In this document: positions 24,172-30,178 of the stretch, piece by piece
Layout of the letters: each line of letters starts with the position of its first letter
Numbering within the stretch: the first letter of the stretch is position 1
Notes under the pieces: model-generated
What the model was told of the DNA's origin: nothing
Seen by the model: the letters and a program-made list of their open reading frames with translations, nothing else
The model's database searches: none
Made by a program: the position numbers and the translations under genes
Origin: an uncultured Acidobacteriota bacterium
Lineage (GTDB): Bacteria; Acidobacteriota; Vicinamibacteria; Vicinamibacterales; SCN-69-37
Direction: 5' to 3'
Assembly (NCBI GenBank): GCA_963730095.1
Contig: CAVSQJ010000002.1
Span: 2,171,844 to 2,235,843, forward strand
Length of the DNA stretch: 64,000 nt

Positions 24172-25024
24172 ATGACCGTCACGCACCGTCACCGTTCTTG
24201 GCGCGGGCACGATGGGACACGGCATCGCGCACGCCTCGGCCGCCGCCGGCTACGAGACGCGGCTGTTCGACGTCTCGGCGACGCAACTCGAGCGCGCGCG
24301 CAGCCTGATCGACGGGATCTTCCTGAAGTCGGTCGAGCTCGGCAAGGCGACGCGGCCGGACGCGGACGCCGCGCGCTCGCGGCTCAGACGTCACCAGCGA
24401 TGTCGACGCGGCGCTCGCGGGCGTGGACTCGGTCATCGAGGCCGCGCCCGAGCGCATGGAGCTCAAGCTCGAGCTCTTCGCCGATATCGAGCGTTCGGCG
24501 CCGCCCGCGGCCGTCGTCGCGACGAACACGTCGGCGCTCAGCATCACGGAGATGGCCGGGTCGCTCAAGAATCCGGCGCGCGTCGCGGGCATGCACTTCT
24601 TCAATCCCGTGCACAAGATGAAGCTCATCGAGATCGTGCGGGCGCTCGAGTCGAGCCCGGAGGCGCTCGCGACGATCGAAGCCGTCGCGCGCGCGATGGG
24701 CAAGGAGACGGTGCTCGTGCAGCGAGGCGCCCGGCTTCATCACGACGCGCGTCAACGCCTCGATTGGCAACGAAGCGTTCTACATGCTGATGGAGGGCGT
24801 CGCATCGGCGCGCGACATCGACAAGGCGCTCAAGCTCGGCCTCAACCATCCGATGGGCCCGTTCGAGCTGGTCGATCTCGTCGGCCTCGACACGCGGCTC
24901 AGCATCCTCGAGTACCTGCACAAGTCGATGGGCGAGAAGTACCGTCCCTGCCCGCTGCTCGTGCAGTACGTGAAGGCCGGCCGGCTCGGCAAGAAGGTCG
25001 GCAAGGGCGTCTACGAGTACCTGA
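24172..25024 (+). CDS. 3-hydroxyacyl-CoA (3-hydroxybutyryl/adipyl-CoA) dehydrogenase, frameshifted
   Basis: GxGTMGHGIA, VIEAAPE, ATNTSALSI, GMHFFNPV, PMGPFELVDLVGLD, GRLGKKVGKGVY. Confidence 0.92.
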
Positions 25025-26362
25025 TGGCGATCCTCGAGCGACTGGGCGCGGCGGGATTCGCGCACGCCGAGGCCGAGAGCCGGGCGGCGCTCGTGGCCGA
25101 GGCGACGGCGGCATTCGTGCGGAAGACCGGCGGGCCGCCGCGCTGGGCCTGGTTCGTCCCCGGCCGGATCGAGATCTTCGGCAAGCACACGGATTACGCG
25201 GGCGGGCGCTCGCTCGTCGCCGCCGTGCCGCGCGGCTTCGCCATCGTCGCGGCGCCGCGCGATGACGCACGCGTGCGCGCGGTCGACGCGAAGTGGCGCG
25301 ACTCGACCGAGATCGATCTGGCCGACGACGACACGCGCTTCGTCGGCTGGTCGAACTACGTCGCCGTCGTCGCGCGCCGGCTTGCCCACAATTTTCCAGG
25401 CGCCACGCTCGGCGCCGATCTCGCGGTGCTGAGCGACTTGCCGCGGGCCGCCGGCCTCAGCAGCTCGAGTGCGCTCGTCGTCGGCGTGTCGCTGGCGCTC
25501 ATCCGGCGGGCCGGGCTGGAGCGCCGGCCGGAGTGGCACGCCGCGATTGAGAGCCGGCTCGATCTCGCCGGGTACCTCGGCGCCGTCGAGAACGGCCTCA
25601 CGTTTCGAACGCTCGCCGGCACGAGCGGCGTCGGCACGCACGGCGGCAGCGAGGACCACACCGCGATCCTGGCCGGCCGCGCCGACCGGGTGAGCGCGTA
25701 CCGCGTACGTGCCCGTCGAGCACCTCGGCGACGATCCGATGCCCGACGCGTGGCGCTTCGTCGTCGCGGCGAGCGGCGTGCAGGCCGACAAGGCGGGCAG
25801 CGCGAAGGATCGCTACAACCGCGCGTCGCTCGGCACGCGCGCGCTCGTGGCACTCGCCAACACGTCGGCCGGGGCGACATGGCCGACGCTGGCGGCCGCG
25901 CTCGCCAGCGCGCCAGACGCGATGGTCCGGCTGCGGGCGCTTGCGGCCGAGCGCGGCACCGACGGCTTCAGCGCCGCCGATCTGAGTCTCCGGCTCGATC
26001 ACTTCGTCGGCGAGGACGCACGCGTCCCGCTCGCCGCGGCCGCGTTTCGCGCGGCCGACGTCGCAGCGATCGACGAGCTCTCACGCGCCTCGCAGGACGA
26101 CGCCGATCGGCTGCTCGGCAATCAGACGCCCGAGACGCGCCTGCTGGCCGCGCTCGCGCGCGAGCAGGGCGCCTTTGCCTCGAGCAGCTTCGGCGCGGGC
26201 TTTGGCGGCAGTGTGTGGGCGCTCGCGCCCGCATCTGACGCTGACGCGTTTGCGGCGCGATGGCTGACTGCTTACCGCGCGGCGTATCCCGCCATGGTCC
26301 GCGCCGAGGTGTTCGTCACCAGGCCGGGGCCGGGCGCCGTCGATCTTTCCCTCAGTGAATGA
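25024..26362 (+). CDS. Galactokinase-like GHMP kinase (frameshift near 25705)
   Basis: PGRIEIFGKHTDYAGG, LPRAAGLSSSS, SSFGAGFGGS. Confidence 0.8.
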
Positions 26363-26738
26363 TGATCTGTCCCTGCAGGTTCTGCTGGCTGAAATCGTCG
26401 TGATCGTGGAAGCCGCATGTGCGCACGGTCACGAGATTGCCGGTCTCACGGCTCTGGCCGGGCGTCAGAAATCCAACTTGATTGATCTCCGGGCAGTCGG
26501 TGTGGTCAGGATGCGGGTCGGACGCCATGTTGTGCGTGCGTGAGTCGCTGTTGACGAACAGCACGCGCGTGCCCAGCGTCACCTGCACGACCTTCGGGCT
26601 GACGCCCGACGACGTGATCGTGATCGTGTTGGTCGACACGGGCGGAGCAGGGGAGGGCGACGTCGAGGACGTCGACGATCCGCCACACGCGCCGGCGAGC
26701 AGCACGACGGTGGTGAGGGTCCACGCTCGCGCGGTCAT
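26352..26738 (-). CDS. Cupredoxin-fold lipoprotein
   Basis: Lipobox LAGAC; [16 protein letters not shown]; HPDHTDC; CGFHDH. Confidence 0.75.
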
Positions 26739-26785
26739 CCTTCGAACATCTTAGCGCTCGAGCGCACGCAGCGGATCCGACGAGA

Positions 26786-26945
26786 CAGGCCCCGAAGGGA
26801 GCGAGGTATGGGAGGCAACGCCCGGCGATCGTTCCAGCGGCCTCGGCACGGCACCGAAACCGAGGCACCGTCGGTCCCCCAATCACGACGAGCGCGGCAC
26901 CACCTCGCCCCCTCCGGAGCCTGGCCGGGTACGCACCGGCATTTG
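26786..26945 (-). ncRNA. Putative sigma54-dependent structured sRNA (5' hairpin + long rod)
   Basis: 22-bp terminal helix 26786-26807/26902-26923 (19 Watson-Crick pairs; the 3 mismatches are all G-U on the minus strand); inner helices of 7, 6 and 7 bp; 5' hairpin 26924-26940; starts about 12 nt below a -24/-12 promoter. Confidence 0.6.
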
Positions 26946-26956
26946 CGCACTAGATG

Positions 26957-26972
26957 AGCAAGGTTGATGCCG
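26957..26972 (-). promoter_or_regulatory. Sigma54 (-24/-12) promoter
   Basis: Minus strand CGGCATCAACCTTGCT = GG-N10-GC with TTGC, directly downstream of a sigma54 activator gene. Confidence 0.75.
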
Positions 26973-27023
26973 CGCGAGAACGCGGACGAAATCATGGGCC
27001 GCTCGGCGCGTCGATGCCGATCC

Positions 27024-27057
27024 TTACGCGCGCGGTAAACGCTTACATGCGGCGTAA
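27024..27057. promoter_or_regulatory. Tandem TTAC-N7-GTAA palindromes, candidate enhancer (UAS)
   Basis: TTACgcgcgcgGTAA (27024-27038) and TTACatgcggcGTAA (27043-27057), about 80-110 bp upstream of the predicted start site. Confidence 0.55.
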
Positions 27058-27066
27058 AGCCGCGCG

Positions 27067-28443
27067 TCAGTCGTCTGGCGCGTCGATGCGGTGCTTGGCG
27101 AGGTAGTAGCTGAGCGCGCGCTGGCTGATGCCCATGGCTTCGGCTGCGTCCTTCTTGACGCCGCGCGCGGCTTCGAGCGCCCGTCGAACGGTCTCGCGCT
27201 CCGTCCATTCGAGGTTCTGCTTGAGCAGCAGCGACGGCAGGCCGGTCGGTCCGGGCGCCGAGGCGCTCACGATCATCACGTCGCGCGGCCGGATGACGGG
27301 CTCGGGCGTGAGCACGACCGCGCGCTCGATCGGTGTTCTCGAGCTCGCGCACGTTGCCCGGCCATGGCGCACCGGCGAGCAGCGCCATCGCGTCGGGCGC
27401 GATGCCGTCGATGCGCTTGCCGGCGCGGCTGGCATGGCGCCGCACGAAGTGCTCGACGAGCAGCGGGATGTCCTCGGGCCGCTCGCGCAGCGGCGGAATC
27501 GTGATCGGGATCACGTTGAGCCGGTAGTAGAGATCCTCCTGGAACTTGCCCTCGGCGACGAGCTGCCGCAGGTCGCGGTTGGTCGCCGCGATGATCGCGC
27601 ACGTCGACCTTCACGGTCCGCTCGGAGCCGAGCGGCTCGAATTCGCGTTCCTGCAGCACGCGTAGGAGCTTGGCCTGCACGGTCGGCGCGATCACGGCGA
27701 TCTCGTCGAGCAGGATCGATCCGCCGTCGGCCAGCGCGAACCGGCCCTTCTTGTTCGCGACGGCGCCGGTGAACGCGCCCCGCACGTGGCCGAACAGCTC
27801 GGATTCGATCAGCGTGTCTGGCAGCGCCGCGCAGTTCACCCGCACGAGCGGCAAGTCGCGCTGCGCGCTCCAGTCGTGAATCGCGCGGGCGACCAGCTCC
27901 TTGCCCGTGCCGGTCTCGCCCGACGATCAGCACGGTGCTGCGCGACTGCGCGACGATCTTCGCCATCCCCACGACGTCCTGGATCGCGCGGCTGCGCCCG
28001 ACGATGCCGTAGTGGTCGAACTGCTCGTCGCGCTCGGTGATCAGGTAGTCGTGGTGCGTGCGCAGGCGCTCGTGCTCGACCGCACGGCGCACGACGACGA
28101 GGAACTCGTCGATCTCGAACGGCTTCTGCAGGTAGTCGATCGCGCCGAGCTTCATCGCTTCGATCGCGCTCTCGACCGTGGCGTGCGCCGTCATCATGAG
28201 GATCTGCGGCCGCTCGCCCTTGCCCGTCGCCGCCAGCACCTCGCGGATGAGTTCGAGCCCGCCGAGCTCGGGCATCAGGTTGTCGACGACGAGCAGGTCG
28301 AACGGGCGCTCGGTGACGACGCGCAGCGCCTCGCGCGGGCTGCCGGTCGCGAACACCTCATGGCCTTCGTCGCGGAGCGCGGCCGTCAGCGCCTGCCGGA
28401 TCTTCGGCTCGTCGTCGACGAGCAGTACGGAGCCTCTGGTCAC
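27067..28443 (-). CDS. NtrC/AtoC-family sigma54-dependent response regulator (frameshifted)
   Basis: Receiver LLVDDE...DNLMP...MTAH...KP; GETGTGKEL; [15 protein letters not shown]; [10 protein letters not shown]; C-terminal Fis HTH. Confidence 0.93.
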
Positions 28444-30178
28444 GCGGATGCCTCGCTCGCCGGCGCCCGGTCCGGCAGCTCGATGCGGACGACGGTCCCG
28501 ACGTTGGGGCGGCTCTCGATGACGATCGTGCCGCCCAACCCTTCGATGATGTTGCGCGCGATCGCCAGGCCGAGTCCCGACCCGGTCCGCCGCGTCGTGA
28601 AGAACGGCTCGAACAGGCGCGGCAGATCCTCGCGCGCGATGCCCGGCCCGCGATCCTTCACCTCCACGCGCCAGCGGCCCGGCGCGGCCGACCACGCCCG
28701 CAGCTCGATGGGCGGCTGGCCGTTCGCCGCGCGCGGCGTCGATTTCACCGCCTGCTGCGCGTTCGCGAGGACGTTCACGAGCACCGACCGGACACGCTCG
28801 GCGTCGGTCACGAGCGGCAACCGGGCCTCGCTCGCCTCGAGCCGCACCGGCACGTCATCCGCGCCCGCCTGCGTGGCCTGCGCCGCGTTGCGGCAGATCT
28901 CGACGAGATCGGCCGGCGCAAGGTCGTAGCGAATCGGGCGCGCGAAATCGAGCACGTCGGACACCACGCGATTCAGTCTGCTGCACTTCCTCGTCGATGT
29001 TCGCCGCCACCGCGACGACATCCGCCGACTCGTGCTTGCGGAGGTTCCGGACGGCACTCTTGATGATCATCAGCGGATTGCGGATCTCGTGCGCGACCAC
29101 CGTCGAGAGGCGCCCGAGCGACGACAGCCGCTCGCGCTGCGCGGCCTCGCGCTGGAACCGATCGAGCGCGCCGGTGAGCTGGCGGAACGTGGCAGCCAGC
29201 GCCAGCGCATCTTCGTCGTCCCACGGCCCGCCGGGCGGGACGGTTCTCGCCAGGTCGCCCGTCGCGGCCATTTCGCTCATCGTCGCCGTCAGCGCGCGCA
29301 GCGGGCGCGTCACCGTCCGGGCAATGGCGTAGGCGACGATCGTCGCGAGCAGCACCGCCGCCAGCCCGGTGACGACGATCTGCCAGTGCAGCGCCGTCAG
29401 AAAGGCGAGGCGCTGCGTGCGCGATCGCAGCACGAGCGCCACGGGCTCCTGCGGCCCGCTCGTCGTGCCGAGCGGCTGCACCTTGCCGATATAGCGCTCG
29501 CCGCCCAATTGTCTGTCGAACTCGCCCGTCGGGCTCGTCGGTTGGAGGAGCCCGGCAGTCCGATCGGCATCGAGCGTGGACGCCACGATCCGGCCGTCGG
29601 CCACGATCGCGATGTCGCTGTCGGTCACGGCCTTGATCCCCGAGACGAACTCGCGATCGAGCCCAAACCCGACGATGAGCGTACCGGAGTGGATCGAGCG
29701 AGAACGCCACGGCGTGAACGACGCCACCGGGCACGACGCGGAACGACGTGTTGTCCGCACTCTTGCGGCAGGCGGCCGCGATTTCCGCGATATCGTCGGG
29801 CGCCGGCTGGATGCGGCCGGTGTTCGCGAGCACGAGATCCTCGCGGCCGAGCACGACGAACAGGTCGGCCGCGATTTTCTTCTGATAGTCGACCGCGATC
29901 GGCAGCACCGTGGGCGGGTCGTCGACCTGCGCTGCCGCGCTGAGCTTCGGCAGGTCCGCGATGAGCGAGCCCTTCGCCGCGAAATCCGCGAACTGCCGCC
30001 GGCCGAGCTGGTCGACGAGCGACGCCGACTCGGACAGCCCGTCGCGCAGATCCTTCTCCGCCTGGTCGGTCACCGCGGTGTTGACGCTGTAGATCGCGAT
30101 GCCGATCGCGATCACGACCACGACGGCGCTCGCGAAGAAGATGCGGTTGGTGAGCGACGAGATGAAGCTCATCGCCAT
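28440..30178 (-). CDS. Sensor histidine kinase with periplasmic domain and HAMP (frameshifted)
   Basis: Two TMs, TRPLRAL HAMP, VAHEIRNPL H-box, NVLANA, DRGPGI, FEPFFTT, GSGLGL. Confidence 0.92.

Follow-up and report, generated by a model that had tools for sequence, protein, structure and literature searches.

A candidate stand-alone gene for a structured, sigma-54-controlled RNA behind an NtrC-type activator gene in Vicinamibacterales

Introduction

The small RNA (sRNA) NrsZ of Pseudomonas aeruginosa is a processed, RpoN- and NtrBC-dependent transcript encoded in the tail-to-tail spacer between ntrC and PA5126 (PMC4253122). CrcZ of Pseudomonas and GlmY of Enterobacteriaceae are described as sigma-54 sRNAs with upstream activating sequences (UAS) for the adjacent two-component regulator, CbrAB and QseEF (GlrKR), respectively (PMC6075780, PMC8745638, PMC6296734). 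Here we report on a 64,000-nucleotide (nt) stretch of DNA (the window; GenBank assembly GCA_963730095.1, contig CAVSQJ010000002.1, positions 2,171,844 to 2,235,843 of the forward strand) from an uncultured member of the Vicinamibacterales, an order of Acidobacteriota that is widespread in soil and represented here by metagenome-assembled genomes only. On the minus strand of the window, in the spacer behind a gene for an NtrC-type activator, lies a conserved rod-shaped RNA element preceded by a sigma-54 promoter. A preliminary description, made from the letters alone, had put this element forward as a possibly undescribed sRNA driven by that activator.

Results

The spacer encodes a conserved structured RNA

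A conserved structured RNA, of an estimated ~140-165 nt, on the promoter strand is well supported. It consists of a core shared across relatives and, in the genus of the window, of an additional hairpin at the 5' end.

26783..26925, minus strand: conserved RNA core, a 143-nt irregular rod (covariance model match, 145 bits)
26924..26940, minus strand: 5' hairpin P0, 5 bp, GCCGG-N7-CCGGC (from the sequences of loci L001 and L003-L007)

In the core, positions 26923-26903 pair with 26806-26786 to form the closing helix P1 of 21 bp, which includes three G-U pairs. Opposite the invariant module GAUUG-GGGGA-CCG (26884-26872) lies GG-AA-CGAUC (26835-26827), and the apical loop UUUCGGUGCCGUG occupies 26859-26847. 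Invariance extends to the blocks GGnGCGAG and CUCGnnCCCU within inner P1, to GAUUGGGGGACCG opposite GGAACGAUC, and to most of the apical loop; pattern-based retrieval inflates the conservation of two of these blocks, but all were already invariant in the 18 loci obtained by BLAST. Inspected by eye for a kink-turn, the GGGGA/AA internal loop has AA (AU in two loci) instead of GA on its nonbulged strand, and this reading was dropped. Hairpin P0 occurs only in the genus of the window, and its length differs from one congener to the next. In other genera, which do not have it, transcription is predicted to start at the P1 base. Folding of the 207-nt stretch gives -113 kcal/mol (z = -3.2), and none of 200 shuffled sequences folds as well.

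Within the family, BLAST shows that spacer positions 141-281 (window 26926-26786) are far better conserved than their flanks, at 96% identity among congeners and 72-85% in other genera, and the order of activator gene, spacer and core is kept in 18 loci. RNAalifold, applied to a MAFFT alignment of 18 family loci, yields 42 base pairs, of which 21 show compensatory changes, a result that is independent of the covariance model. In the model-based alignment (52 matches, 46 distinct sequences), which is fitted to the model and thus favors its structure, and most of whose sequences were retrieved by a pattern fixing two conserved blocks, 95.0% of pair cells are paired, compared with 84.6% in shuffles. 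Compensatory double changes occur there in 27 of the 42 pairs (15.2 in shuffles), and the covariation score is 0.378, a value that none of 500 shuffles attains (0.181 for shuffles, at most 0.096 for controls with slid partners). G-U cells vastly outnumber A-C cells (251 vs. 29), which fixes the strand of the RNA and points to selection on one RNA strand. Pairing is 95.0% on the promoter strand and 83.4% on the opposite one, and the covariance model scores 74-150 bits forward and ~30 bits in reverse. Because the core varies between 134 and 146 nt across the 46 relatives in steps that are not multiples of three, the region has no credible open reading frame (ORF). Stop-free frames do cross it (ORFs 26751-26882 and 26506-26886), but they are common at such G+C content and uninformative.

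These results bear out most of what the preliminary description had read in about 160 nt of DNA: a 5-bp 5' hairpin followed by a long rod, no credible ORF, and G-U pairs pointing to selection on RNA made from the promoter strand. Its closing helix keeps the three G-U pairs but is 21 bp long, not 22 bp.

The RNA is single-copy, confined to one family among the genomes searched, and unmatched in Rfam

In a single Vicinamibacterales family, the covariance model finds the element in 19 of 71 genomes, representing 11 of 24 genera, and always as one copy. A sample of 138 genomes from 18 other families of the order, searched with the stricter filters of Infernal, gave no match. A two-block pattern scan returned 17 loci in 185,579 species genomes and 39 in metagenome contigs, of which 16 and 34, respectively, fit the model. 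The six others (L043, L065; L054, L073, L074, L083) are two unrelated sequences that fail the model, and they were discarded as chance matches. The carriers among the relatives are metagenome-assembled genomes labeled as Acidobacteriota or as Vicinamibacterales. In the host genome, the element is also present as one full copy. This copy number shows that it is not a repetitive extragenic palindrome (REP), a miniature inverted-repeat transposable element (MITE) or another dispersed repeat.

None of the 4227 models of Rfam 15, where NrsZ, CrcZ, GlmY, Qrr and Pxr should be represented if these are curated, matches the 64-kb window at gathering score. At E <= 10, the interval 26700-27100 gives two noise matches only (E about 7). 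Literature searches returned no description of this RNA, nor of any regulatory RNA in Vicinamibacterales. Membership of a known Rfam family, a lack of conservation at orthologous loci, and dispersal as REP or MITE copies had all been named in the preliminary description as possible objections to a new sRNA. None of these objections stands, since promoter, UAS and structure are kept in orthologous loci, with covariation in the structure.

A sigma-54 promoter and paired activator sites precede the RNA

Upstream of the core, on the same strand, the sequence contains two palindromes and a promoter, all three of which had been recognized in the preliminary description.

27043..27057, minus strand: UAS1, TTAC-N7-GTAA palindrome, starting 86 nt upstream of the promoter GG
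27024..27038, minus strand: UAS2, TTAC-N7-GTAA palindrome, starting 67 nt upstream of the promoter GG
26958..26971, minus strand: sigma-54 (-24/-12) promoter GGCATcaaccTTGC, GGCAT-N5-TTGC

Read in the direction of transcription, the palindromes run from 27057 to 27043 and from 27038 to 27024, their centers 19 bp apart. The promoter lies within cGGCATcaaccTTGCt, with GG at 26971-26970 and GC at 26959-26958. From the usual -24/-12 spacing, transcription is predicted to start near 26946. The RNA would then be ~165 nt long if it ended with the closing helix, and up to ~200 nt if it ended at the next hairpin.

The combination is rare in the host genome. There are 23 TTAC-N7-GTAA sites, among which UAS1/UAS2 form the sole tandem pair, and 92 GGYAY-N5-TTGC sites, just two of which have a palindrome 30-250 nt upstream. 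It is common next to the RNA: in 39 of the 46 distinct loci, the 260 nt upstream of the core include a sigma-54 promoter (GGYRY-N5-YTGC), and in 36 an exact TTAC-N7-GTAA occurs upstream at least once. The spacing is kept as well, since palindromes start 66-67 nt before the GG in 29 instances and 85-87 nt before it in 19. The GG itself stands 23-34 nt ahead of the core in 17 loci, which places the predicted start at or within ~10 nt of the P1 base. The UAS pair constitutes putative binding sites of the adjacent activator.

The only other palindrome-plus-promoter site of the host (L095; C1:2264130-2264360, minus strand; site at C1:2264259) has the promoter GGCAC-N5-TTGC, with the palindrome also 86 nt away. 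The gene that follows it encodes a secreted protein whose C-terminus is PEP-CTERM-like. The DNA upstream is conserved in just 1 of 70 other family genomes, where only half of the palindrome is kept, and the site was not used as regulon evidence. In one metagenome contig (L066), a five-fold tandem repeat of a 7-nt unit containing the CTTAC half-site of the activator palindrome occupies the DNA directly behind the RNA (~10-45 nt after the core).

The RNA is linked to genes for an activator and a sensor kinase

The window, with a G+C content of 68%, lies on contig 2 of a 4.8-Mb genome in three contigs that is 82.5% complete. On the minus strand, a CarboxypepD_reg-domain gene is followed by a sensor kinase gene, the activator gene, the 328-nt spacer and a gene for a 128-aa lipoprotein, after which comes a convergent galactokinase gene.

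28443..30178, minus strand: sensor histidine kinase gene, encoding a transmembrane (TM) helix, a ~230-aa periplasmic domain, a second TM helix, HAMP, HisKA and HATPase (Pfam HAMP, HisKA, HATPase_c)
27067..28443, minus strand: NtrC-family sigma-54 activator gene, encoding REC, AAA+ with GAFTGA, and HTH_8 (three-frame translation, Pfam matches on pieces)

Linkage to the activator is conserved. Its C-terminus is encoded upstream of the RNA in 42 of the 46 loci, and the remaining four have just 162-983 nt of upstream sequence. The core lies 109-439 nt past the last aligned codon of the activator, with the promoter in between.

In the host, both regulatory genes are interrupted by frame breaks, a feature that the preliminary description had missed. 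The activator gene is in four frame pieces (shifts near 27910, 27596 and 27331; stop codon 27069-27067), which are 94-98% identical to a 456-aa intact orthologue. Pfam recognizes REC, Sigma54_activat, AAA_lid and HTH_8 in these pieces, and GAFTGA is visible in frame 1. The intact orthologue is a generic NtrC-family protein that falls below every NCBIfam equivalog cut-off (best matches AtoC, NtrC and ZraR), and the activator is not an NtrC equivalog. As for the kinase gene, it is in three pieces (shifts near 29685 and 28985) that are 86-94% identical to the intact orthologue of congener G029, from which the topology was taken; the ~230-aa periplasmic domain between the two membrane helices matches no Pfam family. 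The convergent galactokinase gene (24784-26362, plus strand) is also split across frames. Because the pieces are 86-98% identical to intact orthologues, and because completeness is only 82.5% for a genome in three contigs, the breaks in the kinase (two), activator (three) and galactokinase genes are probably long-read assembly indels rather than marks of pseudogenes. The host genome encodes rpoN (Sigma54_DBD, 215 bits).

The gene downstream has a putative promoter element of its own

Past the RNA, the minus strand carries the following features.

26754..26765, minus strand: GC-rich 12-nt perfect palindrome GCGCTCGAGCGC, between the RNA and the -10-like element (from sequence)
26748..26753, minus strand: TAAGAT, a -10-like element 9 nt before the ATG (26738) of the lipoprotein gene (from sequence)
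26352..26738, minus strand: gene for a 128-aa lipoprotein with a lipobox and a weak cupredoxin-like domain (Cupredoxin_1, E = 6e-4, below the Pfam cut-off)

The palindrome GCGCTCGAGCGC may serve the RNA as a terminator stem or the next gene as an operator; in congeners, its place is taken by other GC hairpins. The element TAAGAT, found at 26753-26748 where the preliminary description had placed it, is not peculiar to the host. In 21 of the 46 loci, the 260 nt downstream of the core contain a TA[AGT][AG]AT motif with an ATG or GTG 5-11 nt further on. At cupredoxin-like genes of relatives, TAAGAT, TAGAAT or TAAAAT is kept 5-11 nt before the start codon, which suggests that the mRNA of the cupredoxin-like lipoprotein is leaderless or nearly so. 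A T-rich tract at the end of P1 is found in 10 of the 46 loci, compared with 8 of 173 control windows. A generic scan for sigma-70 promoters and terminators found nothing in 26000-27500.

In 11 of the 46 loci, a convergent gene (from its translation MBL-fold hydrolase-like, galactokinase-like or cytochrome c-like) lies 6-330 nt after the RNA, and the core is intact there at 74-136 bits. In five carriers without a cupredoxin neighbor, no homologue of the cupredoxin was found genome-wide (E <= 0.001; this search had no internal positive control), and three of these five genomes are at least 95% complete. A separate search with the window's own cupredoxin protein as query detected homologues at 46-80% identity. 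The lipoprotein gene is a frequent neighbor of the RNA but a dispensable one.

Relatives differ in what the promoter precedes

Some carriers have a different layout. In L017/L046, L047 and L070 (and probably L061, L084 and L089), UAS and sigma-54 promoter are followed by a gene for a DUF5777 outer-membrane beta-barrel, and the RNA comes right after its stop codon. At such loci, the RNA would be a 3'-untranslated-region-derived or processed species.

Activator orthologues with at least 70% identity also exist in genomes in which the model finds no RNA. We examined the DNA downstream of 12 of them. A filter-free covariance-model search gave only short unrelated hairpins there (best E = 0.009-0.9), and thus no hidden divergent copies. 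In three g17 genomes (L106-L108), one palindrome is followed ~87 nt later by a sigma-54 promoter directly before the cupredoxin gene, with no RNA between; this gene starts 13-17 nt after the promoter TTGC and is again nearly leaderless. Two g13 genomes (L103, L104) have a palindrome and a GG-N10-GC site before a DUF5777 gene, the GG-N10-GC sites having been chosen by eye, since the promoter pattern used elsewhere failed to match them. One g22 genome has a palindrome after the activator gene, and no promoter was found. The other 6 of the 12 loci have neither palindrome nor promoter after the activator gene. These layouts indicate that the RNA sits inside a sigma-54 unit that elsewhere expresses envelope proteins.

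RNA libraries contain contigs that cover the core

Words sampled from 1149 nt around the element were sought in metatranscriptomes, and 17 runs from 13 studies contain 4-10% of them. Evidence was drawn from four of these runs, each from a different study, and the small word shares of the other 13 were not used. In each of the four, one contig covers 26784/92-26923/28 with 4-5 differences. These contigs carry no strand or end information; they are compatible with transcription, but also with read-through or carry-over of DNA. Depth is zero over 26937-27053 in all four runs, which says nothing on the start site because the contigs stem from relatives with different flanks.

Discussion

We consider it likely that the locus is a stand-alone gene for a structured regulatory RNA under the control of the adjacent two-component system, a proposal in which transcription, the 5' and 3' ends, activator binding and mode of action are inferred. 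The membrane kinase would sense a periplasmic signal and phosphorylate the NtrC-type activator encoded just upstream of the RNA. The activator would then bind the two CTTAC-N7-GTAAG sites, which start 86 and 67 nt upstream of the promoter GG, and open the sigma-54 promoter, and the rod-shaped RNA so made would act independently of the downstream gene. Where the RNA follows a DUF5777 gene or stands directly before a cupredoxin gene, it would have to be excised from a longer transcript, for which the 21-bp closing helix would offer a plausible RNase III site.

The rod might instead act in cis, as a 5' leader or an element within a sigma-54 operon made up of promoter, optional DUF5777 gene, rod and cupredoxin gene; it would then control termination, stability or translation of the downstream envelope gene and would not act in trans. 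Several observations fit such an element and so count against a stand-alone RNA gene. A co-oriented cupredoxin gene lies downstream in 29 of the 46 loci (besides these and the convergent cases, three loci have an unassigned neighbor and three too little sequence), and just 16-17 nt separate the end of the RNA from the cupredoxin ribosome site in L071 and L072. There are also 6-7 loci in which the RNA comes after a DUF5777 gene and has no promoter within 260 nt. UAS and promoter stand directly before the cupredoxin gene in g17 and before the DUF5777 gene in g13, and from the g17 layout a leader origin, or a continuing leader role, is plausible. The generic scan found no intrinsic terminator in the window, where the tail after P1 is not T-rich. 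Moreover, the four metatranscriptome contigs (408, 244, 310 and 260 nt) go beyond the core by 25-98 nt on its upstream side and 32-170 nt on its downstream side; as they outreach a discrete 165-nt RNA, they may be read-through transcripts or carried-over DNA. Our proposal is also weakened on other grounds: the fitted, pattern-enriched alignment behind part of the covariation evidence, the five frame breaks in the kinase and activator genes of the host, which, if real, would mean that the system is dead here, and the outcome of a search for perfect 11-12-nt complementarity between three conserved segments and the host genome, which returned the locus itself and a few chance-level matches and identified no target or partner.

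Nevertheless, we judge it unlikely that the rod is only a leader. Whereas a riboswitch or cis-acting leader would be expected always to stand co-oriented before one class of regulated gene, the RNA here precedes cupredoxin genes in 29 and convergent genes in 11 of the 46 loci, and the constant partner is the activator gene (42 of 46). The intact cores before convergent genes, together with the five carriers without a detectable cupredoxin homologue, argue that the RNA is independent and not merely a leader. The -10-like element close to the start codon in 21 loci and the enrichment of T-rich tracts after P1 point the same way. The suggestion in the preliminary description that the RNA need not be a 5' untranslated region is thus upheld, and its status as an independent sRNA is supported, but not proven. 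Since RNA-less relatives drive protein genes from an equivalent promoter, and given the spacing in L071 and L072, a leader role is possible in some lineages. As for a 6S-like RNA, which the preliminary description had offered in divergent form as an alternative, or another decoy for RNA polymerase holoenzyme, sigma-54 or the activator, the long irregular rod with its conserved internal loops would be in keeping with it, and the apical loop contains GGUGCC, the complement of the -24-like word GGCACC, although this is a resemblance only. However, the 6S model RF00013 does not match here at E <= 10, and the host has a canonical 6S RNA elsewhere (L098; C1:1175533-1175716, minus strand, 88.5 bits), so we rejected 6S identity. 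The rod also has no large central bubble, and a TTGC-like word in its 3' half is not conserved, which leaves any such decoy very improbable. It is harder still to believe that there is no RNA gene at all and that the region is a DNA-level palindrome, a repeat, a terminator of the activator gene or a small protein gene. GC-rich palindromic DNA is common after genes, and stop-free frames cross the region, but this idea is largely refuted by the single copy per genome, the 251 to 29 ratio of G-U to A-C pairs, the position of the core 109-439 nt past the activator with the promoter between, core lengths (134-146 nt) whose differences are not multiples of three, and compensatory changes that make little sense in a coding frame.

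A more elaborate reading is, taken as a whole, doubtful. In it, the RNA would be a lineage-specific riboregulator born in the leader of an older sigma-54 envelope operon (DUF5777 barrel, cupredoxin lipoprotein) and would now be the sole conserved output of the two-component system, the protein genes having gone in several genera, where the promoter would serve the RNA alone. It would act as a protein-binding RNA whose partner recognizes the sequence-invariant helices GGGNGCGAGG/CCUCGCNCCC and GAUUG-GGGGA-CCG/CGG-AA-CGAUC, with RNase III excision at the 21-bp closing helix. The difference from g17 and g13 may stem from gain of the RNA or from its loss in these two genera.

Returning to a stand-alone regulatory RNA, its mode of action can be narrowed by the proteins available to it. 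Thirteen family genomes, some of which are 99-100% complete, gave no match to Hfq (PF17209), which was detected in seven of eight genomes of other families in the order, and a family-wide loss of Hfq is possible. Hfq-dependent base-pairing is thus unlikely, and the RNA must act by another route. Conserved GGA words prompted the idea of a CsrA sponge of the CsrB/RsmZ type, which was rejected since no CsrA (PF02599) was found in the host genome or in six genomes of its genus; there are only two such words, both in or beside helices. Our best guess is a trans-acting, Hfq- and CsrA-independent regulatory RNA made on the signal of the adjacent two-component system. It might act through base-pairing of the apical loop with targets or through a protein that recognizes the sequence-invariant helices, and we make no choice between these two.

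A kinase sensing the periplasm, an activator, two putative sites, the sigma-54 promoter and the structured RNA together make up a complete signaling module that is open to testing. With 46 distinct sequences that covary clearly and a covariance model that works, the RNA family is a well-defined one. Since sister genera wire an equivalent promoter to protein genes, the locus may show how a two-component system acquires an RNA output.

How does this module compare with known ones? The gene crcZ adjoins cbrB, and the CbrB site has a half-site resembling TTAC/GTAA; CrcZ acts by sequestering Hfq/Crc via A-rich motifs, while GlmY is a decoy of RapZ. Unlike CrcZ, the RNA described here has no A-rich motifs and belongs to a family of bacteria in which Hfq was detected in 0 of 13 genomes, and by Rfam it has no homology to CrcZ or GlmY. 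It resembles 6S RNA (RF00013) in being a long irregular rod, within a length range of 140-190 nt, but the 6S model is unmatched here, and promoter type and genomic context differ.

The likeness to NrsZ goes further. NrsZ is also encoded directly behind the gene of its own NtrC-type activator and has an RpoN -24/-12 promoter, its tail-to-tail next gene matches the 11 loci with a convergent neighbor, and it is likewise cut from a longer transcript (PMC4253122). The differences are that NrsZ consists of three repeated stem-loops with a loop seed, whereas the RNA here is one long rod, and that NrsZ, unlike this RNA, has expression and targets shown by experiment. In addition, Rfam reveals no sequence or structure homology between the two RNAs, and the activator here is not an NtrC equivalog. 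The RNA is a new family of an already known regulatory kind, and the layout itself is not new. NrsZ behind ntrC is its closest analogue, with CrcZ/CbrAB and GlmY/QseEF as looser ones.

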